A DNA stretch of 64,000 bases from a bacterium. Lineage in GTDB: Bacteria; DRYD01. The number at the start of each line of letters is the position of its first letter. Within the stretch, counting starts at the first letter, position 1. The stretch lies in the NCBI GenBank assembly GCA_039630415.1, contig JBCNVB010000011.1, forward strand, positions 29,119-93,118, given 5' to 3'. The translations under genes were made by a program, and so were the position numbers. Below are positions 18,823 through 51,207 of the stretch, piece by piece. Under the pieces are notes generated by a model. It saw nothing but the letters and a program-made list of their open reading frames with translations, had not been told where the DNA came from and ran no database searches.

Positions 18823-18842
18823 ACAACCACGAGGTGATTGTA

Positions 18843-19163
18843 ATGAAAATAAAAAAAGGTGATAAAGTAATAGTTATGAGTGGAAAATATAAAGGTGAGA
18901 TTGGAAAGGTAATCAAGGTTATTAAAGACAAAGCAGTAGTTCAGGGAATAAATAGAGTTAAAAAACACGTGAAATCTCCAAATCAAGAACAAAAAAAACC
19001 AGTAATAGTGCAAATAGAAAAACCAATTCATATATCAAACCTAATGCTTATAGATGCAACAGATAACAAGCCTACCAAAGTGGGATTTAAATATATTCAA
19101 AAGGAAGGTAAAAAGATAAAAATAAGAATTTCAAAAAGAACAAAGCAAGAGATAAAACAATAG
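18843..19163 (+). CDS. rplX: 50S ribosomal protein L24
   Basis: IKKGDKV.V.SGK.KG..GKV, PIHISN. Confidence 0.96.
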   Translation: MKIKKGDKVIVMSGKYKGEIGKVIKVIKDKAVVQGINRVKKHVKSPNQEQKKPVIVQIEKPIHISNLMLIDATDNKPTKVGFKYIQKEGKKIKIRISKRTKQEIKQ

Positions 19164-19165
19164 AT

Positions 19166-19203
19166 TTCCGCTTGCCGAGAATGCGGAATATAAATCTCGG
19201 CAA
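19166..19203 (+). ncRNA. Predicted H-type RNA pseudoknot between rplX and rplE (copy 1)
   Basis: TTCCGC(19166-71)/GCGGAA(19183-88) interleaved with TTGCCGAGA(19172-80)/TCTCGGCAA(19195-203); A-rich loop TATAAA. Confidence 0.75.
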
Positions 19204-19213
19204 ATAAAAAACT

Positions 19214-19774
19214 ATGCTAAAAGTAAGTGAACTAAGGCTATATCAAAAATATAAACAAACAGTTATACCAGAATTAATAAAAATTTTTGGATACAAAAAT
19301 ATAATGCAGGTACCTAAAATAGAGAAAATAGTTGTAAATATGGGAGTAGGTGATGCAACTCAAAACCAGGATATAATCAAAAAAGTATACAGACAACTAT
19401 CTATTATTACAGGTCAAGCACCCGTAGTTATCAAAGCTAAAAAATCTATCTCAAATTTCAAACTTAGGAAAGGTATGAATATTGGGTTAAAAGTTACTCT
19501 CAGGAAGCAAAAAATGTGGGCTTTCCTCGATAAACTAATATCAATCGTCCTACCTAGAATAAGGGACTTCAAGGGTGTAAGTAATACCTCTTTTGATGGA
19601 AGAGGTAACTATAACTTGGGTATAAAGGAACAAATAATATTTCCTGAACTATCTTATGACGATATAGACAAAATAAGAGGTTTGGATATTAACATAACAA
19701 CAACAGCTAAAACAGATAAAGAAGCCTATGAGCTTCTTAGATTACTTGGAATGCCATTTAGAAAAGGAGGATAA
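19214..19774 (+). CDS. rplE: 50S ribosomal protein L5
   Basis: [28 protein letters not shown]. Confidence 0.98.
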
Positions 19775-19777
19775 CGT

Positions 19778-19963
19778 ATGCCAAGAAAAGCCCAAATAGA
19801 AAAATGGAAAAGAACTCCTAAATATCAAGTAAGATTTAGAAATAGGTGCAAGGTATGTGGTAGACCAAGAGGATATTTTAGAATGTTCGGAATTTGTAGA
19901 ATGTGTTTAAGAAAAATGGCTTATGAAGGACTTATACCAGGTCTAAGAAAAGCAAGCTGGTAA
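19778..19963 (+). CDS. rpsZ: 30S ribosomal protein S14, zinc-binding short type
   Basis: [10 protein letters not shown]...GICRMCLR, 61 aa. Confidence 0.96.
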
Positions 19964-19982
19964 GTTAAGTGAGGTGAAATCC

Positions 19983-20378
19983 ATGCTAACAGACCCAATC
20001 GCTGATATGTTTGCAAGAATAAAAAACGCTATCAATAGAAAACATGAAACCGTCAAAATACCAGGATCTAAATTCAAAAAATCTATACTCGAACTACTCA
20101 AAAAAGAAGGATATATAGCCGACTTTCAAATAGAACCAGTTAACAACTATTCATATAACTTCATCGTAAAACTCAAATACGTAAAAGGTAATCCAGTGAT
20201 AAATGACATAATAAAAGTAAGCAAGCCTGGAAGAAGAATATATAGATCTTATGATCAAATACCCAAGGTACTATCTGGAATGGGATTAACTATACTTTCT
20301 ACTTCTAAAGGAGTTATTTCTCATCGAGAAGCAATTAAGAACAAAATAGGAGGAGAAATAATAGCTTTTGTTTACTAA
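19983..20378 (+). CDS. rpsH: 30S ribosomal protein S8
   Basis: DPIADM..RI.NA, SKPGRRIY, ILSTSKG, GGE. Confidence 0.97.
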   Translation: MLTDPIADMFARIKNAINRKHETVKIPGSKFKKSILELLKKEGYIADFQIEPVNNYSYNFIVKLKYVKGNPVINDIIKVSKPGRRIYRSYDQIPKVLSGMGLTILSTSKGVISHREAIKNKIGGEIIAFVY

Positions 20379-20392
20379 GGAGGAGAAATACT

Positions 20393-20956
20393 ATGTCTAA
20401 ATTGATAAAAAAACCAATAATCATACCAAAAAATACCAAAGTAGAAATAAGCCAAGGAATGGTAACTGTTTCAGGACCTAGGGGAAACATATCAAAAAAA
20501 TTTGATACAGAACTGATTGACATAAAAGTACAAAATGATCAGGTATGGATAATACCAAAAATGCAAAAATCTAAGCGAATAAATAGATTTATAAAAAAAC
20601 TTGCTGGAACCTATTGGAGCATAATTAACTCCATGTTCAAAGGAGTAAACGATGGATTTACCAAAACTTTACAAATTGTGGGATTAGGATGGAAGGCTAA
20701 TCAAAAAGGTGATGGAGTAGAACTACTTGTTGGTTACTCCCATCCAGTTGTGTTCTATCCGCCAAAAGGTATAACTATTAAAGTAGAAGATCCTCAAAAA
20801 ATAGTGGTATCAGGAATAGATAAAGAGTTAGTTGGACAAGTTGCGGCTAATATAAGAAAAATTAGAAAACCAGATAGCTATAAAGGAAAGGGTATAAGAT
20901 ATGCAGATGAAAAACTGACTCTCAAAGAAAGTAAGAAAGGAACAAAGGGTAGGTAG
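20393..20956 (+). CDS. rplF: 50S ribosomal protein L6
   Basis: GYSHPV, GIDKELVGQVAA.IR, YKGKGIRY. Confidence 0.97.
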   Translation: MSKLIKKPIIIPKNTKVEISQGMVTVSGPRGNISKKFDTELIDIKVQNDQVWIIPKMQKSKRINRFIKKLAGTYWSIINSMFKGVNDGFTKTLQIVGLGWKANQKGDGVELLVGYSHPVVFYPPKGITIKVEDPQKIVVSGIDKELVGQVAANIRKIRKPDSYKGKGIRYADEKLTLKESKKGTKGR

Positions 20957-20962
20957 GTTAGC

Positions 20963-21079
20963 ATGAAAGTAAGAGCATCAGTTAAAAAAATATGTGCTTA
21001 CTGCAAAGTAATTAAAAGAAAAGGAAAAGTTAGAGTAGTTTGTTCTAAATACAAAAAACACAAACAAGTACAGGGATAA
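20963..21079 (+). CDS. rpmJ: 50S ribosomal protein L36 (absent from the ORF track)
   Basis: Hand translation [38 protein letters not shown]. Confidence 0.97.
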
Positions 21080-21095
21080 AAGAAGGTGAAATGAT

Positions 21096-21467
21096 ATGCC
21101 CAGAATAGCAGGAGTTAACATACCCGAAAATAAACAATTGTGGATATCACTGCGCTACATATACGGTATAGGTCCTACAAGAGCAATGGAAATCCTAAAA
21201 AATACAAATATAAATCCTTATAAAAAAGCAAAAGACCTTACACCCGAGGAAATATCTAAAATACAAAAATACATAGAAGATAATTATATCGTTGAGGGAG
21301 ATTTAAGAAGACAAATAAATCAAAATATCAGAGAGCTAATAGAAATAAGATGCTATAGAGGAATAAGGCATCAAAAAGGTCTTCCTGTTAGAGGACAAAG
21401 AACAAGAACTAATGCCAGAACTAGAAAAGGACCTAGACAAAACAGAATAGGAACAAGGAAAAAATAA
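21096..21467 (+). CDS. rpsM: 30S ribosomal protein S13
   Basis: [31 protein letters not shown]. Confidence 0.98.
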
Positions 21468-21485
21468 TCCCAATCAATATCTTCT

Positions 21486-21907
21486 ATGAATATCCTTGGT
21501 ATAGATTGGGGTAAAAAAAAATAGGGCTAGCCCTCGCTAATACGCAACTAAAAATAATCTCACCCCTTAAAACAATCCAAAATAACAAAAATACAATACA
21601 AGAAATAATTAAGATTATAAAAAACTACTCAATACAAAAAGTTATTATTGGTTTACCCCTGTATCCAGTCTCTAAACAATACAATCAACTATATAAACAT
21701 ATAAAATCTTTTTCTAAGCAACTAGAATTTGAATGCTTAAAAAACCTACAAAGACAGATACAAATAGAATTTATAGAGGAGGAATATACCACTGAAATAG
21801 CAAAAATGTACTGCTCAAAAGCAAAAAAAGATAAGTTAGATATGTATGCAGCTACTATAATACTAAAAACATACTTAGGAGGAGCGTATGGAGATATTAA
21901 CTCATGA
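21486..21907 (+). pseudogene. yqgF: YqgF/RuvX (pre-16S rRNA nuclease), split by a single frameshift in an A9 run
   Basis: MNILGIDWGKKK then TAG; adding one A at 21513-21521 gives IGLA...VIIGLP...IEEEYTT...LDMYAATIIL open to 21907. Confidence 0.85.
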
Positions 21908-23009
21908 AATAGGATCTTTAGCTAAACCTTCTTGGAGAGTTAAACCTTTCAGAAATATACCCTTATCTGAGCAAGATTTACAAGAGGCAGTCAATTGGGC
22001 TAAAAAATTACAAATAACTCATGAAGTAGAGGAATTAATCGAAATACTTAAGAAAAACTTAAATAAGATAGTTTCCAGTCAAGAAGAAAAACACAAAATA
22101 ATCTACTATTCCTCACTATACGCTACCAGACTACTCGAAAACGTAGGATTGGACCTTGTGTATGACGGTGAGCAACATAGAAGCGAAATGTATGAATATC
22201 CAATAAAAAACATACAGGGGTTCGAGTTTAAAGGACATGTTCGTAGTTTTGACAATAAATACTACAAAAAAGCATCAATTATCTCTAAACCTAAGCTTAT
22301 TAAACCGTATCACACCCAGGAAACAAGAGTAATTAAATCGTTCGCTAGAAAAAAATTGAAAATACCTATAACTGGCCCGTATACTCTTGTTGATTGGTCT
22401 TTTGATGAATACTACTATAAATTTAACTTGTTGGAACTACAAGAGAAAAAATATAGAGAACAATTCCTTAAAGATATGTCTGGTATAATAAGGATGAATA
22501 TAGAGGAAATAATACAAAATGGAGCTGATTTTATCCAAATAGATGAACCAGCAGCTACTACAAAAAAGGATGAAGTAGAACTATTTGTAAACACCATTGT
22601 TGATACGGTAAAGGGTCTTGAAAGTAAAGCTAATTTCTCTATCCACATATGTTTCTCTAATTATGAACTACTTTTTCCAACAATATCCAAATTAGATGGG
22701 ATAGTAAAAGAAATACATTTTGAGTATGCAAATAGAGATAGCTGGAAACTGGGTAAAAAAAATAGAAAAGGATATAAAATCTTAAATTACTTTAAGAATA
22801 CTAATTTTATTGTAGGATTGGGTGTTATAGATGTTCACACTGATAGAATAGAAAGTATAGACTTAATTAGAGAAAGGGTTCTATATGCTCTAGATGTTGT
22901 TGGTCCTAGAGTGTATGTATCTCCTGATTGTGGACTTAGAACACGCTCTTGGGAAATCGCTTATCAAAAACTACATAATATGGTACAAGCTGTTAAAAGT
23001 ATATTTTGA
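21888..23009 (+). CDS. Single-barrel (core) cobalamin-independent methionine synthase family protein
   Basis: IGSLAKP, DGEQHR, PITGPYTL, IQIDEPA, Zn ligands HIC / E / SPDCGLR; only 373 aa. Confidence 0.85.
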   Translation: MEILTHEIGSLAKPSWRVKPFRNIPLSEQDLQEAVNWAKKLQITHEVEELIEILKKNLNKIVSSQEEKHKIIYYSSLYATRLLENVGLDLVYDGEQHRSEMYEYPIKNIQGFEFKGHVRSFDNKYYKKASIISKPKLIKPYHTQETRVIKSFARKKLKIPITGPYTLVDWSFDEYYYKFNLLELQEKKYREQFLKDMSGIIRMNIEEIIQNGADFIQIDEPAATTKKDEVELFVNTIVDTVKGLESKANFSIHICFSNYELLFPTISKLDGIVKEIHFEYANRDSWKLGKKNRKGYKILNYFKNTNFIVGLGVIDVHTDRIESIDLIRERVLYALDVVGPRVYVSPDCGLRTRSWEIAYQKLHNMVQAVKSIF

Positions 23010-23010
23010 T

Positions 23011-23781
23011 ATGCCTTACCAATTATATGTTCTCAAATCCTGTATTTCAACTCAAGATGAGGTTAAAAAAAGAATAGAAATTTCTCAAAACGACTTAATT
23101 GCTGTACTTTCCGAAACTCAAACAAAAGGTAGAGGAACATATTCAAGACAATGGTTGTCTGATGTAGGAGGACTTTATCTATCTCTAAGTCATCCTATTA
23201 TAGATCACTTTTTACCTCCATCTACTATATTCTCACTTATTGTTATAAAAACTTTGTATGAATCCACATCAAATTCCTATCTTGCCAGATTACCTGTTGG
23301 TATTATATATCCCAATGATATTGTACTTGTGTATAAACAAAATTACTACAAACTAGGTGGTATATTAGTTGAAAATTACAAAAACATCTTGATAGTAGGT
23401 ATAGGGTTGAATATAAATAACCGTGTCAAGGAATATAATTTCGAGCATAAAGCTATTAGCATAAAAGAATATTATGAGATAACTGAAAATATTAGCCCTG
23501 ATATTGAAGTAGAGGAACTTTCAAATAGGATACTTACAAATGTAGAAATCTTCTATCAGAATAAACCCACTAGTTATGATCATTTACTTGAACTAATAAA
23601 ATATGTAGATTTCACACCCAACCTTAAAAACATAAGTGTTATATATCAGTCAGATGAAAGGGAAACAGTTGAAAATTTTCAAACAATTGAAGTTAACTTT
23701 TTTTCAAGGCAAATAAAACTTAACAAAAACAATTCAACACTTTTGATTCAGTTTGAAAGGGTAAGGAGAATAATGTACTAG
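23011..23781 (+). CDS. birA: Biotin-[acetyl-CoA carboxylase] ligase
   Basis: STQD, QTKGRG...R.W.S..GGLYLS, PND, KLGGILVE, VGIGLNI; ATG start preferred over the TTG in the track. Confidence 0.88.
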   Translation: MPYQLYVLKSCISTQDEVKKRIEISQNDLIAVLSETQTKGRGTYSRQWLSDVGGLYLSLSHPIIDHFLPPSTIFSLIVIKTLYESTSNSYLARLPVGIIYPNDIVLVYKQNYYKLGGILVENYKNILIVGIGLNINNRVKEYNFEHKAISIKEYYEITENISPDIEVEELSNRILTNVEIFYQNKPTSYDHLLELIKYVDFTPNLKNISVIYQSDERETVENFQTIEVNFFSRQIKLNKNNSTLLIQFERVRRIMY

Positions 23782-24500
23782 ATTTTGATAATTTCCCTTA
23801 ACTTTTTCAGCGCTTTTGACTGTATACGGGATACATTAACTTGAATTGTATTTAGCTTTTTAGCTATTTCTTCTTGAGTTAGACCTTCAAAAAACTTGAG
23901 AGTTATAACGGTTTTTTCTAGTGGATCGAGCTTTGCTATAGCCTCTTGTAAAGAAAGCCTCCTATCTATGTGCTCAGTTATGTTCTTTCCATCCCATATG
24001 ATTTCATTTATAGGCTTATTATTCTCAACAACACTACTATCTATAGAAAGGATTTTATGCTTTGAGAATTCCAAGTATTCTATTAGCTTTTCTCGGTCTA
24101 GATTTGTATATTCTTCAAGTTCTTTAAGAGTAGGTTTTCTATTAAGTTTTTGGGATAACTCTGCTATTTTTTGGTTGATAAGGTTGTAGTATTCGTATGT
24201 TTCTCTCGGTGGTCTTATTACACTATGTTGATCTCTGTAGTATCTCTTTATTTCTCCAACAATATATAACGAAGCATAGTTAATAAAGTTATCTGATTTA
24301 TTGAAATCGAAATTTTCAATAGCTTTTATTAGTCCTATTATGCCTATTTGAACAGAGTCTTCTTTATCATAACTATTTGAGTTTTTGTATGCAAGATATT
24401 TAACATAAGGTATCATTAATTCAACTATTTTATTTCTATAGTATTTATCCTTAGTTACTTGGTATTTTTTCAGCAAAAGATATACTTCTTCTTTATTCAT
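23778..24500 (-). CDS. RNA polymerase sigma factor, SigB/SigF/SigG family
   Basis: IGLIKAIENFD, F..YA...I.GEIKRYYRD, TQEEIA..L...QVNVSR. Confidence 0.9.
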   Translation of the reverse strand: MNKEEVYLLLKKYQVTKDKYYRNKIVELMIPYVKYLAYKNSNSYDKEDSVQIGIIGLIKAIENFDFNKSDNFINYASLYIVGEIKRYYRDQHSVIRPPRETYEYYNLINQKIAELSQKLNRKPTLKELEEYTNLDREKLIEYLEFSKHKILSIDSSVVENNKPINEIIWDGKNITEHIDRRLSLQEAIAKLDPLEKTVITLKFFEGLTQEEIAKKLNTIQVNVSRIQSKALKKLREIIKI

Positions 24501-24522
24501 TAACTGGGATTGTACAGATTAA

Positions 24523-25830
24523 TTAAGGTTTATAACGATAGAGCATGCGTGGGAAGGGAATGGTTTCTCTTACATGATCTGTTTTACAAATCCACGAGAC
24601 GAATCTTTCTATTCCAAGACCAAAGCCGCTATGGGGTGCACTACCGTATTTTCTTAGATCTAAATACCATTGATATTCTTCCAAAGGTATTTTTTCTTCC
24701 TTTATTCGTTGTAAAAGGATATCGTAATTATCTTCTCTTTGACTACCTCCTACTATTTCTCCATATCCTTCTGGTGCTATTATATCCATGTTTAGGACAA
24801 AATCTGGGTTTTCGGGATCTAATTTCATATAGAAAGGTTTTATTGATTTAGGGTAGTGAGTTATTATAACTGGTTTATCGAAATTTTCGGATATTGCTGT
24901 TTCTTCGGGAGCTCCAAAGTCTTCCCCAAATTTGAAATCTATACCTTTTTTCTTCAAGATTTCTACTGCTTGAGTATAGGTTATCCTATAGAAAGGAGGT
25001 GTAGCTTTTTCTAAAATAGATGTATCCCTTTCTAAAATTTGCAATTCATATTTATTATTTTGTAGTATTTGAGATATGGTATAGTGGATCATGTTTTCTG
25101 CTAGTGTTATTATATCTTCGAGTGTGGCAAATGCTACTTCTGGTTCAACCATCCAAAATTCTATTAGATGCCTTCTGGTTTTGCTTCTTTCTGCTCTAAA
25201 GGTTGGACCAAAACAATATACTTTGTTAAAGGCTAATGCTCCTGCTTCCTGGTATAACTGCCCACTTTGAGACAAGTACATTTTGTCTCCAAAGTAATCA
25301 ACTTCAAATAGGGTGGTTGTTCCTTCGCAAGCTGATGGAGTTAAAATAGGACTGTCAAACTCTATAAAGCCTTCTCTATCTAAGAACTCTCTTATATATT
25401 TCTTTACACTGTTCCTTATTCTTAGAATAGCAAATTGTTTTCGACTTCTAACCCATAAGTGTCTGTGATCTAGCAAAAAATCTATACCATGTTCCTTAGG
25501 AGTAATAGGATAATCCTGTGTTTGATGAATTATTTCCAAATTTTTCACATGAATCTCATAACCTATTTGTGATCTAGGGTCTTTCTTTAAAATACCGATA
25601 ACTTTACATGTACTTTCTTGGGTGCATTTATCAAAGACTTCAAAAAGTTCAGGATTATCTACTACGCATTGTATGAATCCTTTACCATCTCTAACTATTA
25701 AAAATCTTATTTTACCACTACTTCTCTTGTTCCATACCCATCCGTTTATGCTTACTAATTTATCTTCTAATTCGTGCCCTTTTATTCTTATTTGCTCCGT
25801 ATTAGTACTTACTATTTGAGTTATGCTCAT
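24523..25830 (-). CDS. asnS: Asparagine--tRNA ligase
   Basis: GWVWNKRSSGK, LSQSGQLY, FGPTFRAE.S.TRRHL.EFWMVEPE, PHSGFGLGIER. Confidence 0.95.
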   Translation of the reverse strand: MSITQIVSTNTEQIRIKGHELEDKLVSINGWVWNKRSSGKIRFLIVRDGKGFIQCVVDNPELFEVFDKCTQESTCKVIGILKKDPRSQIGYEIHVKNLEIIHQTQDYPITPKEHGIDFLLDHRHLWVRSRKQFAILRIRNSVKKYIREFLDREGFIEFDSPILTPSACEGTTTLFEVDYFGDKMYLSQSGQLYQEAGALAFNKVYCFGPTFRAERSKTRRHLIEFWMVEPEVAFATLEDIITLAENMIHYTISQILQNNKYELQILERDTSILEKATPPFYRITYTQAVEILKKKGIDFKFGEDFGAPEETAISENFDKPVIITHYPKSIKPFYMKLDPENPDFVLNMDIIAPEGYGEIVGGSQREDNYDILLQRIKEEKIPLEEYQWYLDLRKYGSAPHSGFGLGIERFVSWICKTDHVRETIPFPRMLYRYKP

Positions 25831-25861
25831 AATTCCCTCTCCTTTTTGGATTGATTATCTG

Positions 25862-26344
25862 CTATTTATTTTCTTTTTTCAGGAGTTCTAAAAGGTAAGA
25901 GTTTGACTGATAGATAATTTTATATGAATAGGAGCTAGCAATGTATTCTTGAAAGTTATTTTTTGAGGGGAAAAGGCTTATGATGAAAAATATACTCCAC
26001 CAGAAAATGTATACTTTTATTAACGCTACTATACCTCCTAAAAGTTTATTTGTCATACTTAAAATTTCGCTTCCTTTCGAGTATAGTTCTATTCCATATC
26101 CTATTGCCATTGTAATAAAGCCTGTAATAAGGAACAATACTATACCTGTGATCACTTTTAAAAAATTCTTGTTCTGTATATTTATTATTGTTCCTAGGAA
26201 TGAAGAAAAACTATCTGTAAACGTGTATGCTACTATTAGTGCTATTACTATTGCAACTATGTCTGTTATCTCTGCTATTACACCTCTTTCATATCCTATC
26301 TTGAAAAGGGCTATAAAAGATAGAAGAACTATTAAATCTATCAT
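25862..26344 (-). CDS. CvpA family membrane protein
   Basis: MIDLIV...GYERG.IAE, four hydrophobic segments, NKLLGG. Confidence 0.8.
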   Translation of the reverse strand: MIDLIVLLSFIALFKIGYERGVIAEITDIVAIVIALIVAYTFTDSFSSFLGTIINIQNKNFLKVITGIVLFLITGFITMAIGYGIELYSKGSEILSMTNKLLGGIVALIKVYIFWWSIFFIISLFPSKNNFQEYIASSYSYKIIYQSNSYLLELLKKENK

Positions 26345-26373
26345 TCTATACGATTTTCAATCCTAATCTAATG

Positions 26374-27732
26374 TTACTTAACTTTTAAAGCTTTATTTAT
26401 CAGCGAGGATATTAAAACAGGATTAGATTTTTTCGAACATTTGCAAAGTACTATTTTGCTATTTTCATAATTAGATAGTAGATAGAAAGAATTCTGCGTT
26501 TCTATGATAATGTTATTAGGTTTTTCTGTAAAGAAGTTTGAAAACATTTCAAGGTCTCTATATAGGGCTACTATTGCAGTGATACTAAATTCATCCAGAT
26601 GTTTGTTTTGACTATACTCTAATTCTTCAGTTTCTAAATTTATAATATAAGTTTCTTCGATTGGTGGTATATTTGAAAGCCTATTCATTATTTCCTGTAC
26701 TGGCATTAATATGTTAACCTCCTTCTCTACTCCTTGATGTTTTCCCTGCATTTGTTCAATTTCTTGTAATTGTTTTTGTATACTTTCCTGGTATTGTATA
26801 TCTTCTGATGCTTGTATGACTTCATGTTGTTGTATGTTTTCTGATGGTGTAGTTTCTTCTGTTTGGGTAGTTTCTTCTATTTGAATAGTTTCATCTGTAT
26901 GAATGGTTTCTTCTGTATGAATGGTTTCTTCTGTTTGAGTAGTTTCTTCTGTTTGAATGGTTTCTTCTGCTTGGGTAGTTTCTTCTATTTGAATAGTTTC
27001 TTCTGCTTGAGTAGTTTCTTCTGTTTGAATAGTTTCTTCTGTTTGGGTAACTTGTTCTAATTCTGTAATTTGTTGTGATTGTATGATTTGTTCTAGTTCC
27101 TTTGTTTGTATATTTTCTTGTGTTTGTGTATCTTGGCTTTGTTGATATTCTTGGTCTATTTCTGTGATTAATTCTTCTATTTCTTGTATTTGTTTTTCTA
27201 TATCTTGTTGGGTATCTTGTATTTGTTGGTTATTTGTTTGATCAGAATCATCTATTTTTTTTTCCTCTTGTGATTGATTTTTCTCCAATTCTAGTTCCAA
27301 TTTTACATCTTCGGGTCTATACTTTATGATTGATTCAAGTGTATCTAACAGATTATCTTCTTCTAGTTTTTTTCTTAGAAACATTGGTAGGTAGCTTAAC
27401 AAATCTTCTTCTGTAAGTTGTATTAAATAGATTACTGCTTCAAGTTCTTTATACTCATCGAATAATGCTTCGACGATTATTCCGTTTTTGACTACTATTT
27501 TACCTGTATGACTTCCATGACTAAGTAGTAGTTCTATTTGATTAGCTTTAGGTTTGAGTTTTTCTATAGTTTTTATAAGGCTTTCTCTTTCCAAGTCAAC
27601 AAAAGTACTGATGTTTTCTTGCTTTTTTGCTGTTTGAGTAAGTTTTTGCTTATCAGATACGGGTGGTTTAACATATTCTGGCTTTATGTAGAATTTTTCT
27701 CCTTTTGGATTTTTTTGTTCAAATCCTTCCAT
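26374..27732 (-). CDS. Hypothetical protein: DUF4388/PATAN-like N-domain, acidic Q/E/T repeat linker, Roadblock/LC7-like C-domain
   Basis: GKIVVKNGIIVEA...EAV pattern; TEETxQ repeats; C-terminal IIIETQNSFYLL...VLCK...NPVLI; domain names by resemblance. Confidence 0.5.
   Translation of the reverse strand: MEGFEQKNPKGEKFYIKPEYVKPPVSDKQKLTQTAKKQENISTFVDLERESLIKTIEKLKPKANQIELLLSHGSHTGKIVVKNGIIVEALFDEYKELEAVIYLIQLTEEDLLSYLPMFLRKKLEEDNLLDTLESIIKYRPEDVKLELELEKNQSQEEKKIDDSDQTNNQQIQDTQQDIEKQIQEIEELITEIDQEYQQSQDTQTQENIQTKELEQIIQSQQITELEQVTQTEETIQTEETTQAEETIQIEETTQAEETIQTEETTQTEETIHTEETIHTDETIQIEETTQTEETTPSENIQQHEVIQASEDIQYQESIQKQLQEIEQMQGKHQGVEKEVNILMPVQEIMNRLSNIPPIEETYIINLETEELEYSQNKHLDEFSITAIVALYRDLEMFSNFFTEKPNNIIIETQNSFYLLSNYENSKIVLCKCSKKSNPVLISSLINKALKVK
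26848..27048 (-). repeat. 18-bp coding tandem repeat, about 11 units, encoding (T/A/I)EET(I/T)(Q/H)
   Basis: Recurrent gtttcttct every 18 nt on the + strand. Confidence 0.9.
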
Positions 27733-27772
27733 TGGTGTACTTTAGAATACCTCCTGGATTAGTGTTAGTGTT

Positions 27773-28156
27773 CTATTTTATTTCTACTTTTGCTCCTACT
27801 TCTTCTAATTTTTTCTTAATTTGTTGTGCTTCTTCTTTAGAAACACCTTCTTTTATTGGTTTTGGAAGACTTTCTACGAAGTCTTTAGCTTCTTTAAGCT
27901 GCATGTTGGTTATTTCTCTTACGACTTTAAGAACGTTTAGTTTAGCGTTATCTGGGTAGCTTACGACTATAACATCAAAGGTGGTTTTCTCTTCTTTTTC
28001 TTCTTGTTGAGCTGGTGCTGCAGTAGGTATTGCAGCAACTGCCATTGGAGCACTGGCTTGTACTCCAAACTTATCTTCTATAGCTTTAATAAGTTCTACT
28101 AACTCTAGAACACTCATTTGGCTTATTGCTTCTACTATTTGTTCTTTTGTAACCAT
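27773..28156 (-). CDS. rplL: 50S ribosomal protein L7/L12
   Basis: [35 protein letters not shown]. Confidence 0.97.
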
Positions 28157-28172
28157 TTATTTTCTCCCTTTC

Positions 28173-28222
28173 CAAGCGTATTGCTTGTTCAGGGTACTTA
28201 TATACCGCGCCCTAAACGCGGT
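28173..28222 (-). ncRNA. Predicted H-type pseudoknot plus small hairpin between rplJ and rplL (copy 2)
   Basis: Minus strand: ACCGCG TTTAGGG CGCGGT ATATAAGTA CCCTGAA, then CAAGC-AATAC-GCTTG, then SD GGGAG. Confidence 0.7.
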
Positions 28223-28226
28223 TATG

Positions 28227-28841
28227 TTATGATTTTTTATCTTTAACAGCTTGTAAAGCCCACAAAAGCTTTAGTATAATTGTATTTAGAGTACTTGCAA
28301 GCTTTGTTATAGGAGCTTTAAGTGTACCAGCTAATTGTGAGAGTAAAATCTCTCTGGAAGGAATTTTCGATAATTGCTTTATGTCGTTAGCTGTTACTAC
28401 TTTGCCATCTAATATACCAAAAAGTATTTCTGGTATATCTTCTTTTGTATTCTTTTCTTTTTTTATACTCGTTATGAATTCTTCTAGTTTTTTTGCTAGC
28501 ACTATAGGATCGCTTGATGTGTAGTTTATAGCTATGGCTCCTCTTACTTTAGGTACTAGTTGGTTGTATCCTTTTGTCTCTAGAGCTATCTTTAAAAGAG
28601 AGTTTTTAGCAACTTTTACATCTGCACCAACTTCTTCTAAACTTAAATTGTATTTTACAAATTCCCATGCCTTAAGGCTTAAATTCGGTTTTTGATAGAG
28701 GACAAAGACAACTAAAGAAGATTTATCAAGAATATCAGTGATAGTTTTTAGTTTTTGTCTCTTTTGTTCATTTATTTTGGGTGTATAATTTGGTAGTACT
28801 TTGCGAGGTTTATCTACAAGTCCTGTAGAAGAATTGAACAT
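28227..28841 (-). CDS. rplJ: 50S ribosomal protein L10
   Basis: KVAKNSLLKIAL, LSKIPSREILLSQL...L.AP; immediately upstream of rplL. Confidence 0.93.
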   Translation of the reverse strand: MFNSSTGLVDKPRKVLPNYTPKINEQKRQKLKTITDILDKSSLVVFVLYQKPNLSLKAWEFVKYNLSLEEVGADVKVAKNSLLKIALETKGYNQLVPKVRGAIAINYTSSDPIVLAKKLEEFITSIKKEKNTKEDIPEILFGILDGKVVTANDIKQLSKIPSREILLSQLAGTLKAPITKLASTLNTIILKLLWALQAVKDKKS

Positions 28842-28962
28842 TACTTTACCACCCCTATCTTTTTAGTTACCTAATTAAATATTTTTGACAATAAATATCT
28901 TTTACCTCCTTACTTCTAATTACAAAGGGAAAATATCAAAGAGAGAAAAATATATATCAGAA

Positions 28963-29292
28963 ATGGATGACCAAACTTTTAAAATAAAACTAAAAGAGAT
29001 AATAGAAGCATTTTCATCAGAAGATTTTGAATTAGCAATAAAAAAGGCGGAGGACTTTCAAAAAGAATTACAAAACCAGGACGAAAAAATATTTGTAAAA
29101 AACATTATTAAAATAATCACTGCAGCAAATCTTGTCAACCAACAAAAGCTAGAGGAATCACTCCAAATACTCGAGTCATGCTACCTAGAACTAAAAAATT
29201 ATAGCCCTACTTACAAAGGTCTAAAAGTAGAAAATTTACTTCAAAGTGTAAACCAATCCATAGCTGATATAAAAGCAATAATAAAGAAGTAA
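28963..29292 (+). CDS. Small helical protein, DUF309-like resemblance
   Basis: EKIFVKNIIKI.TAA...L..Y.PTY.GL.V..L pattern; the usual His residues are absent. Confidence 0.4.
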   Translation: MDDQTFKIKLKEIIEAFSSEDFELAIKKAEDFQKELQNQDEKIFVKNIIKIITAANLVNQQKLEESLQILESCYLELKNYSPTYKGLKVENLLQSVNQSIADIKAIIKK

Positions 29293-30524
29293 TGAAAGAT
29301 TTAGAAGAAATCCAAAAAAAAATTTTAAATTTCGTAGCTAAATACAAAATATCTGAACTCATAAACCTACCCTATCTAGTAAACAAAGGGATTACCCCAT
29401 ACATAGTGGGAGGAGTTATTAGGGATACTTGCCTGAATCCTAAACAACAAGACAAAAAAAAATTAGACATAGATATAGTCCTATTAACTTTTGATCCACA
29501 AAAATACAAGGAATATATACTGAATTTACAAACAGAAAAGAAATATAAAATAGTCGAATTAGACAAAAAAAATCTGGTATACAGAGTCATTCCAACCTTA
29601 CAAAATACAGCCTACGCTACCTATATAGATCTAACGTATACAACTAACCTACAAAAAGATTACTACCGTAGAGACTATACCATAAACTCTATTTACTATG
29701 ACATAATTAATCAAAAAATTATCGATTTCGAAAAATGCTTAAAACATATATCCCGAAGAATATTAAAATCTGTAAGGAATGGAAATATAATAGCTGATCC
29801 TATAAGAATCATAAGAGGAATAAGAATAAAAAATGAACTTAACTTAAAGTTTGATACCAAAACATATCAATATTTGAAAAAAAATTTTTTTCAAGTAACT
29901 AACACTAACCCAGTAAGGCTAAAGCAAGAAATCATAAAAACTTTCAACATACCTAAATCGTATAAAGCAGTTAAGGATCTTTTAGATCTTGGTTTCCTTG
30001 AAGTTTACAACATAAACCTAAGTACAAAAAAACAATTGGTAGAAATGATAAAGATTCTAGACATATGCTATGAAATATTCAAAGAAATTTTACAAAGAGA
30101 ATATGAGTTCATTGTGAAGGATAAGAACTACTATGTATTACTACTTTTTTGTAGTTATCTTCTAAAAAACTCTCAAGAATTTTATTCATCTCCCCTTAAC
30201 ATAATCATAGGAGAAAACATCGTTAGAAAAGCTACAAAGATTCTGAATGATTGGAATAAACGTCAAGATCCAAAGTTTATTATAAATAACTTTAAGCACA
30301 AAAATAGTAGTCAACTCTTTGAAATGATCCTTATTAACCTTATTCTCAACTATAACAAACTTGATAAACAAGAATTTATCTCAACTCTTGATGTTCTATT
30401 TAAAGTATGTAGATACGTATGTGAACTTAAAGAAACAGTAATATCATTTGAAAAATATGTTAATTTATTTGGAGAAAAGGATTACGAAAAATATATAGAC
30501 TATGTTATTTCTACCCTAGCTTAA
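29292..30524 (+). CDS. Class II tRNA nucleotidyltransferase (CCA/poly(A) polymerase family), probably CC-adding type
   Basis: VGGVIRD, DIDIV, RRDYTINS, DPIRIIRGIR. Confidence 0.85.
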   Translation: MKDLEEIQKKILNFVAKYKISELINLPYLVNKGITPYIVGGVIRDTCLNPKQQDKKKLDIDIVLLTFDPQKYKEYILNLQTEKKYKIVELDKKNLVYRVIPTLQNTAYATYIDLTYTTNLQKDYYRRDYTINSIYYDIINQKIIDFEKCLKHISRRILKSVRNGNIIADPIRIIRGIRIKNELNLKFDTKTYQYLKKNFFQVTNTNPVRLKQEIIKTFNIPKSYKAVKDLLDLGFLEVYNINLSTKKQLVEMIKILDICYEIFKEILQREYEFIVKDKNYYVLLLFCSYLLKNSQEFYSSPLNIIIGENIVRKATKILNDWNKRQDPKFIINNFKHKNSSQLFEMILINLILNYNKLDKQEFISTLDVLFKVCRYVCELKETVISFEKYVNLFGEKDYEKYIDYVISTLA

Positions 30525-30531
30525 TCAAAAA

Positions 30532-31923
30532 CTATGGGAAAATACCTAATTGGTTGTATGCAATAATTATTTTTTCGAGAGCAAGAACAAAAGCTGCTGT
30601 CTTCAAATCTAAGTTCTTCTCTTCCGATTTATTGTAAATACTATTAAAAGCACTTATCATACTCTCATATAAACCCGACTTGACTATATCTTCCTCTGTA
30701 AAACTGTTAACTAAATTACGATGATCTATCTTTCTACCTGTTATTTTTTCTATCTCCTGAATTAATTTCAAATTGTTTTCTTCTCTTAGTCTCTTTTCTA
30801 ACCTTCCAAACCTTACATGTGATAAGTTTTTGAGATATTCAAAGTAGGATACGGTTACCCCACCTGAATTAAAAAGTATATCTGGTATCACTAACTTATT
30901 GGCTTCAACAAGTTTATAGTGAGCTCTATAAGTAGTAGGTCCATTTGCTCCTTCAGCTATTATCTTTGCTTTTATCTTGGAATAGTTTTTTTCATTTATA
31001 ACATTTTCAAGAGCTGCCGGAACCAGCACATCAGCATCAACTTCTAAACAATCCTGAGGATTTGACGAAGAAACTGCATCAGGAAAACCATAAACTCCTC
31101 CCTTAACCTTAACATACTCATACAGATTATCTACGTTTATTCCCTTAGGATTGTATATCGTACCAGTCACATCTGCTATTGATACTATCTTAACATTATT
31201 ATCGTATAGGAACTTGCATAAAAAGTATCCTACATTTCCAAATCCTTGAACAGAAAAAGTAGCGTCCTGGAAATTATTTGAGACATTATATTTTTTCAAA
31301 ATATCTGTTCTTTGGTTAAAAAGATACTCCAGTATGTAGTAACCCCCTAAACCGGTAGCGTATTTTCTTCCTCTGATACCTCCTTGTTCTATGGGTTTAC
31401 CTGTTACACAAGCCAAGTAATCAACTTCCTTGGAAGACAAAGTAGCATATGTATCAAGTATCCAAGCCATTTCTCTTTCACCGGAACCCATATCGGGTCC
31501 GGGAACATCTATCGAAGGACCTATAAAATTCTTCCTGTACAACTCAAATGTATATCTTCTTACAATTCGTTCCATTTCACTTTCAGAATAGTTTTTAGGG
31601 TTAACTTTTATTCCTCCCTTAGCTCCTCCGAAGGGTATGTCTGTTATAGCACATTTATAACTCATTAGGGCTGCTAATGCCATTACCTCATCTAAGGCTA
31701 CATCAGGACTGATTCTTATTCCACCCTTAGTGGGCATCTTATGAAAACTATGATGTGCTCTCCAACCATATATCGTCTCTATTTGACCATTATTTCTTTT
31801 TATAGGGAAGGATACACTTATAACTGATCTACATTGCTTAATAAGTTCCAGTAAGTTAGGATCAGCTTTAACGTACTTTGTTGCTCTATCTACGAATAAA
31901 TTAACTTCCCTAAAGAAACTCAT
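30532..31923 (-). CDS. gdhA: Glutamate dehydrogenase (Glu/Leu/Phe/Val family)
   Basis: PTKGGIR, PFGGAKGG, VTGKP, QGFGNVG, EGANGP, GGVTVSYFE. Confidence 0.93.
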   Translation of the reverse strand: MSFFREVNLFVDRATKYVKADPNLLELIKQCRSVISVSFPIKRNNGQIETIYGWRAHHSFHKMPTKGGIRISPDVALDEVMALAALMSYKCAITDIPFGGAKGGIKVNPKNYSESEMERIVRRYTFELYRKNFIGPSIDVPGPDMGSGEREMAWILDTYATLSSKEVDYLACVTGKPIEQGGIRGRKYATGLGGYYILEYLFNQRTDILKKYNVSNNFQDATFSVQGFGNVGYFLCKFLYDNNVKIVSIADVTGTIYNPKGINVDNLYEYVKVKGGVYGFPDAVSSSNPQDCLEVDADVLVPAALENVINEKNYSKIKAKIIAEGANGPTTYRAHYKLVEANKLVIPDILFNSGGVTVSYFEYLKNLSHVRFGRLEKRLREENNLKLIQEIEKITGRKIDHRNLVNSFTEEDIVKSGLYESMISAFNSIYNKSEEKNLDLKTAAFVLALEKIIIAYNQLGIFP

Positions 31924-31948
31924 ATTTACCTCCTAGTGTTGTTACTTA

Positions 31949-32764
31949 TTAAGTTAGGAATTCTCCGCCATCTACGTATATCGTGTTGCCTGTAATCCAA
32001 TATGAACTTGGATGAGAAAGTAGCATTATCGCATTTGCTACATCGACAGGAGTTGTTAATCTTTTACTTGGATTATACTTTTGAGCTTTTTCGATCATAT
32101 CTTCGTGACCTGGTATTTTCATCAAAGCTGGTGTTTGTGTAACACCTGCACATATAGAATTAGCTGTTATACCGTATGGAGCTAGTTCTAAAGCTAGTTG
32201 CCTTATATGTGATTCTAATAAGGCTTTGGAAGCTGATACTGGACCATACGATTTCCAATTTCTGCTAGAACCTATACTTGTCATAGCAAATATTCTGGCA
32301 TTTTCTGTAAACATATCATTTATAAAGAGCTTTTGAACCCAATATACTAAACAATTTGCCATTACATCTAATGTCATTTCTAATTGGTCTTTTGAAACAC
32401 AATCTGGGCCTATATAGGGTCTTAGTGATCCAAAAGCTATTGAATGAAGAAAAACTCTTATTGATTTGGTCCCTAGTTGATTTTTAAGTTCAGATATTAT
32501 TTCATCGATTTTAGAAATGTCTGCAGCGTTGGTATTATAAAAGATAGCTTTTCTATTCATGTTGAGAATAGTATTTTTTACATCTATAGCGTTTTGTATG
32601 GTAGATTTTCTGTCTAGGTGTATGCCTACTATATCCATGCCGGCTTTTGCTAAGGCTATAGCTGTTGCTGCTCCAAAACCTGAAGATGCTCCAAGTATTA
32701 TCGCCCAGTCCTTTAAAGTAATAGGGTTTTTTACCGATTCTACTATACTTTCTACTTTAAGCAT
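31949..32764 (-). CDS. SDR oxidoreductase, enoyl-ACP reductase (FabL-like)
   Basis: LGASSGFG, YGPVSASK (YX6K spacing typical of enoyl reductases), ITGNTIYVDGG. Confidence 0.78.
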   Translation of the reverse strand: MLKVESIVESVKNPITLKDWAIILGASSGFGAATAIALAKAGMDIVGIHLDRKSTIQNAIDVKNTILNMNRKAIFYNTNAADISKIDEIISELKNQLGTKSIRVFLHSIAFGSLRPYIGPDCVSKDQLEMTLDVMANCLVYWVQKLFINDMFTENARIFAMTSIGSSRNWKSYGPVSASKALLESHIRQLALELAPYGITANSICAGVTQTPALMKIPGHEDMIEKAQKYNPSKRLTTPVDVANAIMLLSHPSSYWITGNTIYVDGGEFLT

Positions 32765-32777
32765 ATCTTTTATCTTT

Positions 32778-32815
32778 TGTCCGTATATTTTTATACCGCC
32801 TAGCGGACAGGCAGT
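32778..32815 (-). ncRNA. Predicted H-type pseudoknot between pepF and the FabL-like gene (copy 3)
   Basis: Minus strand: ACTGCCT GTCCG CT AGGCGGT ATAAAAATATA CGGACA; stem 1 ACTGCCT/AGGCGGT, stem 2 GTCCG/CGGAC. Confidence 0.7.
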
Positions 32816-34515
32816 TATTCTATTTTCTCAAATTCGACTATAATTTGCTCTATTTGTTTAAAGCTTTCTTGCCAAAAACTACTATCTCTAATATCTAGTC
32901 CTACTGATTTTAGAACCTCTTCTGGTTTTCCTTTACCACTATTCTTCAAAATTTCTACATACTGGTTATTTGATATCTGTCCTATAGTATATAGGTTATA
33001 AATAGCCAACCCTATTAATAAGCCTAAAAGATATGGGTAGTTATAGTAGTTGGATGAGTAATAATGAGGTTTTGTAATCCACATGTATGGATGGAATGAA
33101 TTTAGACTATCGAGATAGATTTCTTGCTGGGAGTCTAACATAAGATTGCATATTTCTTGTGAAGTCAGGATTCTTTCTTTCCTTATATTTATTAGTTTGT
33201 CTTCAAACAAAAAGCGAGACAATATATCAACGACTACTACACTTATGGTATGTAAATAGCTATCCAGGATCTGTTTTTTCAGATTGGGGAATATTTTGAG
33301 TGTATTATTTCTAGTGATTGTTTCTGCTAATATGCTGGCTGTTTCTGCCATGATTAAAGGACATGATCTGTATAGGAAAGTATTTTGTGACATTAGCCAA
33401 TTATGATAAGCATGTCCTAGTTCATGAGCAAGAACTAGTAGAGAATTAACAGAATCATCGTAGTTTACTAGTATTCTTGATTGTTTATCATGGATGTAAA
33501 TACAAAAGCCTCCACTTACTTTCCCTATCCTTGGTTTATAATCTATCCAGTTTTTTTCAAAAGCATTTAGAGCCATGTTGTACATATCTTGTGAAAATTC
33601 AGCAAAATTCCCAAGTATAAATTCCTTGGCTTTATCAAAATCAAACTCCACTTTTTCATGATCTTCTGTTGGTGCGGATAGATCATACCATTCTAATTTT
33701 TCTAGGTCTAAAAGTTGAGCTTTCTTATAAAAATATCTCCTAACTATCGATAAATTCTCAAAGGCAACTGAAAGTACTATATCTAATATCTCTTTGTCGA
33801 TTTGATTATGGAACAAGGATTGTTCTAGTACTGATTTAAACTTCCTTTTTTGACTTACGATAATTGAATCCCATTTAACTGAGTTGAGAATTCTGGAGAA
33901 GATATACTCATATTCTTTAAATAATTCTATCTCTGTTTCGTATGTTTTTTCCCTTATATTTCTGTTGCTACTGTTATAATTTTTTCTTAGCTCGCTTATG
34001 GAGATTTTATTTCCTTCAAACTCTACTTTCAAGTTTGATATTAGCTCATTATAAAGAGATTTCCATTCGGAATTGGAAGTTATAGATAGCTTGCTGTATA
34101 AAATTTCTTCTTCTTTTGTCATCCGATGTTCGTAATTTTCTTTACATTTGAGAATAAAAAACCGGTATTCTTCAATTGAGGGATTGTATTTAGCTATTAT
34201 TTCTTCTAGCTTTATGGTTAGATAGTGAATGCTGGAATTAATTTCATACAGAATCCCCTTAATTTTTTGTGCTTCTTGGTTAAGACTATCTATTGATAGA
34301 ATGCAAGTTATATAGGATTGAGCTTTCCTTATCTTTTCTAATAATTTTTCATACTCTTTAATAAGATCCGGAATTTGATGTTCTTCAATAGATTCTTCAA
34401 CCTTTTGTTCTAGTTGTAAGATTAGATTTTTTATGTTTGTAAGGTCGAGATATACATCCTTTATATTAGGGTAGATTTGTTCTAATCCCCAGGTACTATC
34501 TATCTTGCTCTTCAT
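32815..34515 (-). CDS. pepF: Oligoendopeptidase F (peptidase M3B)
   Basis: W.LEQIY, WYDL.AP, GKVSGGFC, HELGHAYH, AETAS, PHYY...YYNYPY. Confidence 0.92.
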   Translation of the reverse strand: MKSKIDSTWGLEQIYPNIKDVYLDLTNIKNLILQLEQKVEESIEEHQIPDLIKEYEKLLEKIRKAQSYITCILSIDSLNQEAQKIKGILYEINSSIHYLTIKLEEIIAKYNPSIEEYRFFILKCKENYEHRMTKEEEILYSKLSITSNSEWKSLYNELISNLKVEFEGNKISISELRKNYNSSNRNIREKTYETEIELFKEYEYIFSRILNSVKWDSIIVSQKRKFKSVLEQSLFHNQIDKEILDIVLSVAFENLSIVRRYFYKKAQLLDLEKLEWYDLSAPTEDHEKVEFDFDKAKEFILGNFAEFSQDMYNMALNAFEKNWIDYKPRIGKVSGGFCIYIHDKQSRILVNYDDSVNSLLVLAHELGHAYHNWLMSQNTFLYRSCPLIMAETASILAETITRNNTLKIFPNLKKQILDSYLHTISVVVVDILSRFLFEDKLINIRKERILTSQEICNLMLDSQQEIYLDSLNSFHPYMWITKPHYYSSNYYNYPYLLGLLIGLAIYNLYTIGQISNNQYVEILKNSGKGKPEEVLKSVGLDIRDSSFWQESFKQIEQIIVEFEKIE

Positions 34516-51135: not shown

Positions 51136-51207
51136 GGCGGTATAGCTCAGCGGTAGAGCAGGGGAATCATAATCCCTGGGTCCGAGGTTCGATTCCTCGT
51201 GCCGCCA
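51136..51207 (+). tRNA. tRNA with CAT anticodon, most likely elongator tRNA-Met; CCA not encoded
   Basis: Cloverleaf: acceptor GGCGGTA/TGCCGCC, D arm GCTC/GAGC, anticodon loop ATCATAA, T arm CGAGG-TTCGATT-CCTCG, discriminator A then TAA. Confidence 0.93.

Follow-up and report, generated by a model that had tools for sequence, protein, structure and literature searches.

The 64,000-nucleotide stretch of DNA analysed here (the window, from contig JBCNVB010000011.1) holds three short islands between genes, which a first reading of the sequence alone had proposed to be related RNA pseudoknots placed directly after stop codons. We found that the three sites belong to a lineage-wide family of H-type pseudoknots of about 40 nt, which lie in sense orientation in front of mostly highly expressed housekeeping genes and which, when related genomes are compared, alternate with strong Shine-Dalgarno (SD) sequences at the same genes. 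The element may well be an SD-independent ribosome-recruiting leader, acting as a translation-initiation enhancer, a reading that we hold with moderate confidence from comparison of sequences.

A pseudoknot family limited to one lineage

The genome holding the window (G000; 1.40 Mb, 31.9% G+C, 89% complete) was searched for members of the family, whose architecture reads A-NNN-CCGC, L1, stem 2, J, GCGG, WAUANAAA(+), stem 2', the last being the 3' arm of stem 2. CCGC-N6-18-GCGG occurs at 18 loci (36 matches over both strands, the pattern being palindromic), and the full architecture was found in 13. A descriptor scan of the same genome gave 16 matches with a stem 2 score of at least 5, against 1-3 in five shuffled genomes, and in the window itself GCGGWATAWAA with at most one mismatch occurs 11 times, against 3.75 expected (none of 100 shuffles reached 11). 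Both counts stand above those of shuffled sequence, in line with the proposed family. Three of the window matches are exact; the eight with one mismatch were all inspected and are unrelated sequence with no pseudoknot. Two descriptor matches were dropped as probable chance: C3 60614 (window 31496, plus strand), which lies antisense inside an open reading frame (ORF) of 463 amino acids and has a GGUC...GACC stem 1 followed by UAUAAAA, and C26 38755, whose stem 2 is all A/U. We counted 15 members in G000, one of which has a GCAC/GUGC stem 1 and another a weak stem 2.

Results clearly showed that the family is limited to one lineage. A covariance model (CM) built from 13 copies, with matches counted at E<=0.01, gave 10-17 matches in each of 10 genomes of the same GTDB family and none in 51 other genomes, which carries out at genome scale the scan that the sequence-only reading had suggested. 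The pattern CCGCN{6,14}GCGGWATANAA was found 12-25 times in each of these 10 genomes, which represent two genera and whose assemblies are 71-90% complete, and the reversed pattern used as control gave 0 matches in all of them. The same pattern had 0 matches in the sole same-order genome (73% complete) and 0-6 in 30 distant genomes. For the analyses that follow we examined 74 elements, 15 of G000 and 59 from four relatives, the latter picked solely by the 5' half and the first loop bases. Degenerate members were also seen: L150, upstream of kbl in G004, possesses the 5' half without stem 2', and in L147 the stem is 4 bp only.

No known family accounts for the element, as the first reading had supposed. 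In Rfam 15, none of the 15 G000 elements reached a gathering score in a search at E<=10, the best sub-threshold scores being those of PreQ1 (21.5 bits against 39), freshwater-2 (21.4 against 49.9) and UPD-PKf (17 against 39). A literature search of limited coverage found the pseudoknot motif described nowhere. Searched as a whole against Rfam 15, the window gave small-subunit rRNA and one tRNA only; these are the 5' 387 nt of a 16S rRNA gene at 63607-64000, which runs off the window and contig end, and a tRNA gene at 51136-51207.

All three islands lie where the sequence-only reading had placed them. Each consists of a conserved A, three A/U bases, CCGC (CUGC at site 3), 0-2 nt, an arm of 6-9 nt, 1-4 nt, GCGG, an A-rich loop opening WAUANAAA and then the complement of the arm. 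Their parts are the following.

19164..19203, plus strand: site 1, whole element, from the conserved A at -4 to the 3' arm of stem 2, in the rplX/rplE spacer (match to CM R1, 25.3 bits)
19168..19171, plus strand: site 1, stem 1 5' arm, CCGC
19172..19180, plus strand: site 1, stem 2 5' arm, UUGCCGAGA, with core GCCGAGA
19183..19186, plus strand: site 1, stem 1 3' arm, GCGG
19187..19194, plus strand: site 1, loop 3, AAUAUAAA
19195..19203, plus strand: site 1, stem 2 3' arm, UCUCGGCAA
28187..28225, minus strand: site 2, whole element, in the rplJ/rplL spacer (CM, 30.8 bits)
28218..28221, minus strand: site 2, stem 1 5' arm, CCGC; an extension to CCGCG/CGCGG is possible
28210..28217, minus strand: site 2, stem 2 5' arm, GUUUAGGG
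28205..28208, minus strand: site 2, stem 1 3' arm, GCGG
28195..28204, minus strand: site 2, loop 3, UAUAUAAGUA
28187..28194, minus strand: site 2, stem 2 3' arm, CCCUGAAC, with one G.U pair
28174..28186, minus strand: site 2, optional extra hairpin, AAGCaauacGCUU, abutting stem 2 and followed by the SD sequence GGGAG
32778..32818, minus strand: site 3, whole element, between the oligoendopeptidase-F-like and FabL-like reductase genes (CM, 23.3 bits)
32811..32814, minus strand: site 3, stem 1 5' arm, CUGC, making one U.G pair with GCGG; CCGC in orthologues
32804..32809, minus strand: site 3, stem 2 5' arm, UGUCCG
32796..32799, minus strand: site 3, stem 1 3' arm, GCGG
32784..32795, minus strand: site 3, loop 3, UAUAAAAAUAUA
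32778..32783, minus strand: site 3, stem 2 3' arm, CGGACA

When only nested pairs were allowed, folding recovered stem 2 at sites 1 and 2 and gave a competing extended stem 1 at site 3, with z about -2.2.

Both helices are backed by pairing across copies

The element is an H-type pseudoknot, made of two interleaved helices that are both backed by pairing across copies. In a CM alignment of 74 matches, standard pairs fill 97.5% of pair cells against 72.9% after shuffling, and the covariation score is 0.470 against 0.105, a level that none of 500 shuffles reached. In the same alignment, both-sided changes were found in six of the six pairs of stem 2, with 95.5% of its cells paired, and partner columns slid out of place were paired in 29-55% only. 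Because this alignment (A3) was built to fit stem 2 and misplaces some long-J copies, we added a partner-swap control: own partners score 6.84 on average and swapped partners 4.35, and 32% of the swaps still reach at least 5, as CUGG/CCAG is common to many arms and orthologues come up repeatedly. With their own partners, 69 of the 74 elements score at least 5 (54 of 59 among those of relatives). An alignment made with MAFFT (A1), in which stem 2' is out of register, was excluded from the pair counts.

Stem 2 is 5-11 bp long, and its 5' arm has 68 distinct sequences among the 74 copies. A census of its pairs gave 507 Watson-Crick, 38 G.U and 0 A.C, which indicates that the sense strand is the folding strand, as RNA, and counts against a DNA cruciform. 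The fold is kept at orthologous sites with unlike stems, as seen for recA (CCGGUU in genus 1, GCUGAAG in genus 2) and for rpsD (arms GCUGGA and GGCAAGAG); across the two genera, the sites of recA, rpsD, jag and acpP are all kept with compensated stems. Position, covariation and shuffle controls together confirm that the three islands of the window represent a real H-type pseudoknot family.

Stem 1, on the contrary, is an almost invariant helix of 4 bp, CCGC/GCGG, 100% paired. Compensated variants are CUGC/GCAG (two copies, in two genomes) and GCAC/GUGC (one copy), and the U.G intermediate CUGC/GCGG occurs twice, site 3 included. The first reading had described 5 bp with a closing pair flipping between T-A and A-T, and a loop consensus GCGGWATAWAA. 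Neither survives in the family: the fifth pair forms in 43 of 74 elements, near chance, and loop 3, which is A-rich and conserved, has the consensus WAUANAAA. Upstream of stem 1 the sole conserved column is an A at a distance of four bases, which 71 of the 74 elements possess. In all, about 17 nucleotides are near-invariant across the two genera, and the connecting segments vary in length (0-6 nt for J, 0-4 nt for L1).

The two arms of stem 2 also differ in composition over the 74 elements (5' arm 41% G and 12% C, 3' arm 37% C and 16% G), and GCUGG/CUGG is common to many 5' arms. This asymmetry may serve to avoid mispairing with CCGC/GCGG.

The pseudoknots mostly precede housekeeping genes

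All 74 elements are in sense orientation and followed by a gene start, the start codon lying 37-84 nt past the start of stem 1, so that what had been noted for the three islands extends to the whole family. The distance from stem 2' to the start codon is 0-49 nt (median about 18) in the 74 elements and 10-24 nt in those without an extra hairpin. Gaps longer than about 28 nt are occupied by such a hairpin, abutting stem 2', and then by 13-21 A-rich nt. The 12 nt preceding the start codon are 53% A. Therefore a stable fold is flanked by an open stretch just 5' of the start, which is the layout of a ribosome standby site.

The short hairpin abutting stem 2', before the A-rich spacer, was seen in about a fifth of the elements (window 28174-28186, minus strand, and L127, L135, L139, L140, L152, L158, L175, L181, L192 and L194), where it might stack on stem 2.

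About 30 kinds of gene follow the pseudoknot. They include genes of ribosomal proteins, namely rplE (L5), rplL (L7/L12), rpmE (L31), rpmF (L32), rplQ (L17), rpsB (S2) and rpsD (S4); recA, ssb, acpP, tig (trigger factor), frr (RRF) and jag; metabolic genes, such as those for mdh, class I aldolase, ppdK, H+-PPase, acetyl-CoA synthetase, IlvE and PRPP synthase; and AlaRS, AsnRS, SufC and a few others. The set is made mostly of highly expressed housekeeping genes, typically encoding abundant proteins, and the genes upstream have nothing in common. An autogenous ribosomal-protein operator was rejected, as one motif precedes ribosomal-protein, repair, chaperone and metabolic genes; the diversity of these genes agrees with the earlier judgement that no single protein regulates its own synthesis through the element.

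In the window, the genes flanking the three sites are those below; downstream genes were named from NCBIfam and ORF tables and upstream genes were read from translations.

18834..19163, plus strand: gene 5' of site 1, read as rplX (L24) from sequence and position; stop TAG at 19161-19163
19214..19774, plus strand: rplE (L5), starting 10 nt past site 1; no SD, duplex -1.7 kcal/mol
28227..28841, minus strand: gene 5' of site 2, read as rplJ (L10) from sequence and position; stop TAA at 28229-28227
27773..28156, minus strand: rplL (L7/L12), gene 3' of site 2
32815..34515, minus strand: ORF of 566 amino acids 5' of site 3, read as oligoendopeptidase-F-like from sequence; stop TAA at 32817-32815, abutting stem 1
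31949..32764, minus strand: FabL-like enoyl-ACP reductase/SDR gene, 3' of site 3; no SD, -3.2 kcal/mol

The sequence-only reading had placed the element within 4 nt of the upstream stop codon. This is true of the three window sites and fails as a rule for the family. In genus 1, many upstream stops, those of the three window sites included, lie 0-6 nt before stem 1, whereas in genus 2 they lie 10-140 nt before the element, typically 10-65 nt. Counted from stem 1, the upstream ORFs of G000 end between -171 and +66, six of the 15 overlapping the element by 7-66 nt; those of the relatives end between -140 and +53, and no same-strand ORF was seen in the 300 nt upstream of five of 59 elements. G000 is 94% coding, with a median co-directional spacer of 9 nt and 83% of neighbouring genes co-directional; its junctions number 1055 co-directional against 107 divergent, and 91% of gene starts have a co-directional upstream neighbour (the gene calls behind these layout counts, as those behind the SD background below, are crude). 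Adjacency to a stop codon follows from the great compactness of the genome and does not define the element. We also dropped the constant presence of a co-directional gene upstream as a sign of operon-internal function, considering that such a neighbour is the genome baseline (91%).

Two spacers deserve mention. At L192 (G000:C5, about 2425-2500, aldolase), the spacer that separates pfkA from the pseudoknot is filled by tandem copies of a unit of about 13 nt, gctacRctaaaaa.... At L165 (G007, recA), a 9-bp G+C-rich hairpin and a U-containing stretch lie 11 nt before stem 1; this hairpin could be the terminator of the upstream gene, the recA transcript then starting or being processed near the element.

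Pseudoknot and strong SD alternate between orthologues

SD strength was taken as the duplex energy to the anti-SD sequence CACCUCCUU, which is canonical in G003, G004 and G008; the 3' end of the 16S rRNA of G000 is not assembled. Among gene families possessing both forms, the stronger SD was found on the pseudoknot-less orthologue in 25 of 26, with a mean duplex of -10.8 kcal/mol without the pseudoknot and -3.4 kcal/mol with it (Wilcoxon p=1.5e-7). The contrast is large and works both ways between genomes. G000 is on the pseudoknot-less side in 23 of the 26 families, and its copies of genes that carry the element in relatives only almost always have a strong, often extended SD (GGGAGGU, AAGGAGGU, GGAGGUGA); in the other three it is on the pseudoknot side. 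Thus rplE and fabL of G000 possess the element and no SD, and in genus 2 rplE, rplL and the FabL-like gene have no element and an SD reading GGAGGAG, AAGGAGGU or AGGAGGUG. SD-independent initiation, one of the functions that had been suggested from the window, gains comparative support from this either/or arrangement of the pseudoknot with a weak or absent SD and of a strong SD with no pseudoknot.

The first reading had also proposed to test whether the element is enriched after stops and before SD-less starts. Like the tie to stops, SD poverty is not supported for pseudoknot genes as a class, which are not SD-poorer than the genome average (34% vs 31%); what stands is the weakness of their SD compared with that of orthologues, and the signal is confined to this comparison. 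The median SD strength of pseudoknot genes, -3.25 against -3.5 for the genome background, is at the level expected if selection on the SD is relaxed. A strong SD is found in only about a third of the genes of G000 (crude call). Misplaced start codons do not explain the contrast, as a downstream alternative start with a strong SD within 20 codons was present in one of 74 cases. We also considered an SD hidden in the G-rich 5' arm of stem 2 and rejected it, since only 5% of stem-1 loops reach -7 kcal/mol with the anti-SD.

We then looked for ribosomal protein bS1. The rpsA (bS1) model matched nine of the 10 family genomes, each time with a single domain at about 40 bits, and gave no match in the remaining one; the match (at G000:C8:32993-33193 in G000) is to the lone S1 domain of an ORF of about 700 amino acids. 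By comparison, the same-order genome without the element scored 227 bits and six distant genomes 412-649 bits. A tblastn search of G000 with the same-order S1 protein found that one S1 domain only. A multi-domain bS1 was therefore not found across the 10 family genomes searched (71-90% complete), and its absence from all ten by chance is unlikely.

A putative ribosome-recruiting leader and its alternatives

In the explanation that we favour, the pseudoknot of about 40 nt would fold constitutively in the leader of the gene immediately downstream, and the fold, together with the conserved A at -4, the CCGC/GCGG helix and the WAUANAAA loop, would form a docking or standby site for the 30S subunit. 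The ribosome would then load onto the A-rich, unstructured spacer of 10-24 nt and the start codon. That the ribosome or an initiation component binds the pseudoknot, and that the apparent lack of bS1 in this lineage is connected with it, is what we infer from the features above. More tentatively, a lineage that has lost bS1 may use the pseudoknot as a modular second signal of SD-independent recruitment, similar to an internal ribosome entry site (IRES), that could be exchanged with a strong SD before the same gene in the course of evolution. This signal would probably dock on the platform of the 30S subunit, in the place of S1 or the SD helix.

Several points weigh against this explanation. 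The alternation with SD could also follow from some other enhancing effect of the pseudoknot on expression, such as a gain in mRNA stability. The 26 families come from related genomes and are not independent events, so that the p-value of the SD contrast is overstated. A strong SD (<= -6 kcal/mol) is kept by 23% of pseudoknot genes, so that the two signals can occur together; the start lies 10-24 nt away in elements without an extra hairpin, a looser distance than that of an SD. A complement of loop 3 of at least 6 nt was sought in the 16S rRNA of one relative and none was found, leaving no pairing partner there. The correlation between bS1 and the pseudoknot is a single evolutionary event, and as such a lead and not a test. 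Moreover, the E. coli standby pseudoknot (PMC7708055) is described as acting via S1, which was not found in the family genomes.

A strong SD can itself stabilise mRNA, and the SD alternation could thus also be explained if the element acted on processing or stability. RNase Y or an RNase E/G-like enzyme would cut the AU-rich stretch at or near the A at -4, and the pseudoknot would cap and protect the downstream cistron; the upstream fragment would decay and downstream expression would rise. The first reading had likewise offered a nuclease-blocking structure, which may still apply. We regard processing and stabilisation, the main alternative, as unlikely, while acknowledging that genes for RNase Y (531.6 bits) and for an RNase E/G-like enzyme (275 bits) are present in G000, that RNase J was not found in this 89%-complete genome, and that the near-invariant A (71 of 74) could mark the cut. 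The high expression of the downstream genes and the mutually unrelated genes upstream are consistent with it, and a precedent is described for the sae operon of S. aureus, where a structure guides the cut of RNase Y (PMC5449607). However, a pure stabiliser leaves unexplained why the SD has decayed to background in highly expressed genes, and the near-invariant sequences of stem 1 and loop 3 exceed the needs of a mere stable structure. A cut at -4 would also leave non-stop upstream mRNAs in the six of 15 G000 cases where the ORF runs 7-66 nt into the element.

The near-invariance of about 17 nucleotides in two genera suggests specific recognition, and the element could be the operator by which a trans-acting factor particular to this lineage, whether a small molecule or a protein that binds RNA, co-regulates a growth regulon at translation. 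The gene set is indeed coherent (ribosome, replication and repair, central metabolism), and jag and rpsD, which encode RNA-binding proteins, carry the element in both genera. We nonetheless consider an operator improbable. With J of 0-6 nt and L1 of 0-4 nt, the fold offers no obvious conserved pocket, and the length and stability of stem 2 make it look constitutive. Stem 2' is clear of the SD and start codon, and no terminator lies downstream. No candidate factor was identified, and the presence or absence of the element at the same gene between close relatives would be unusual for a core regulon.

Termination-reinitiation coupling, which the sequence-only reading had also put forward, would have ribosomes ending the upstream ORF held by the pseudoknot and restarting at the next AUG. 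The stops of genus 1, often 0-6 nt before stem 1 as at the window sites, and the many downstream starts without SD would suit such a device, but the stops of genus 2 are 10-140 nt upstream, no same-strand ORF lies within 300 nt upstream of five of 59 elements, and six of 15 ORFs in G000 run into the element. Stop and start are 45-70 nt or more apart, and co-directional neighbours are the baseline of the genome (1055 vs 107 divergent). Taken together, these observations make reinitiation very unlikely.

The same low credence applies to a signal at the DNA level, in which the TATA-like loop would be the -10 promoter box of the downstream gene, one of the results that the first reading had named as fatal to its proposal. 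Highly expressed genes need promoters in a 94%-coding genome, and the geometry is possible, with TATANA 22-35 nt before the ATG. Good -10-like hexamers (A at position 2, T at position 6) were nevertheless found within the loop in two of 74 elements only, with no -35 box at 16-18 nt and full promoter-like sites showing no preferred position. CCGC and TATA are separated by a spacing that differs by about 6 nt among elements, and a promoter leaves unexplained the covariation of stem 2 across the box and the 38 G.U against 0 A.C pairs.

The many copies per genome and their differing presence between relatives might bring to mind a REP- or MITE-like dispersed repeat, selfish or neutral and without a role in the host gene. 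This is hardly tenable given 68 distinct stem 2 arms among 74 copies, sense orientation with a start codon following in 74 of 74, the orthologous sites of recA, rpsD, jag and acpP kept across two genera with compensated stems, and the alternation with SD.

Two known classes of structure were rejected as well. An intrinsic terminator does not fit, as there is no U run, the 3' flanks are A-rich in the listed sequences and a gene start follows in 74 of 74 cases. A preQ1-I riboswitch does not fit either: stem 2 is 5-11 bp long with 68 sequences among 74 and does not lie over the SD, the start is 0-49 nt further on, and the genes are unrelated to queuosine.

Relation to known leader structures

Initiation without SD from a folded leader is known from E. 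coli rpsA, whose SD-less structured leader of three hairpins allows efficient, S1-dependent initiation. The likeness to the new family would lie in SD-free initiation from a folded leader, and the differences are that the rpsA leader has three hairpins and no pseudoknot, concerns one gene and depends on S1. The pseudoknots of S15 (rpsO) and S4 (alpha operon) also stand before ribosomal protein genes, but each belongs to one operon and one protein, while the new family precedes about 30 kinds of gene. H-type pseudoknots with an A-rich loop over a G-C stem 1 are also familiar as the frameshift pseudoknots of luteoviruses. A similar resemblance is seen in RF01107 (SBRMV1_UPD-PKf), which has a stem 1 of CCGC/GCGG type, a short loop 1 and an A-rich loop 3 and scored 17 bits (gathering 39) in two of 15 elements; it comprises eukaryotic viral 3'-untranslated-region and recoding elements, and the new family has no slippery site or readthrough context. 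The preQ1-I family (RF00522) is likewise a small H-type pseudoknot of 5' leaders with an A-rich third loop, but it reached 21.5 bits against a gathering score of 39 in one of 15 elements, with the alignment out of register.

The nearest precedent is the +42 mRNA of E. coli tisB, where a 5' pseudoknot and a single-stranded region are described as a 30S standby site, the fold being required for 30S binding and translation as proven by compensatory mutations in stem 2 (Romilly et al. 2020, PMC7708055). Both cases have a 5'-leader pseudoknot beside a single-stranded stretch. According to the same account, tisB is a single gene whose pseudoknot lies about 100 nt from a sequestered ribosome-binding site and acts via S1 (PMC7708055). 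By contrast, the new family is defined by sequence, has 10-25 copies per genome and lies 10-24 nt from open starts in genomes where no bS1 was found, its binding of the ribosome being putative.

In the sae operon of S. aureus, an intergenic double-stranded structure is reported to guide a cut of RNase Y 6 nt upstream; the fragment 5' of the cut is then degraded, and the one 3' of it becomes more stable (PMC5449607). The saePQRS case resembles ours in its intergenic structure within a co-directional string of genes; the shift of expression to the downstream genes and the cut a few nucleotides upstream would be shared too, cleavage at the new family being putative. It differs in that its element is a 24-bp duplex at a single locus with no conserved sequence (PMC5449607).

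Significance

How bacteria select SD-less start sites is an open question, especially without S1. The element offers a compact, sequence-defined module of 40 nt, and the natural swaps between pseudoknot and strong SD at the same gene in sister genomes make its role directly testable. Should its mechanism turn out to be mRNA stabilisation, the element would still represent a new family of RNA, with very clean covariation and from a phylum that is uncultivated. If the favoured explanation is true, the element would provide a thermostable, portable expression part for the biotechnology of thermophiles and, more generally, would represent the bacterial counterpart of a minimal IRES and a new way of starting bacterial protein synthesis.

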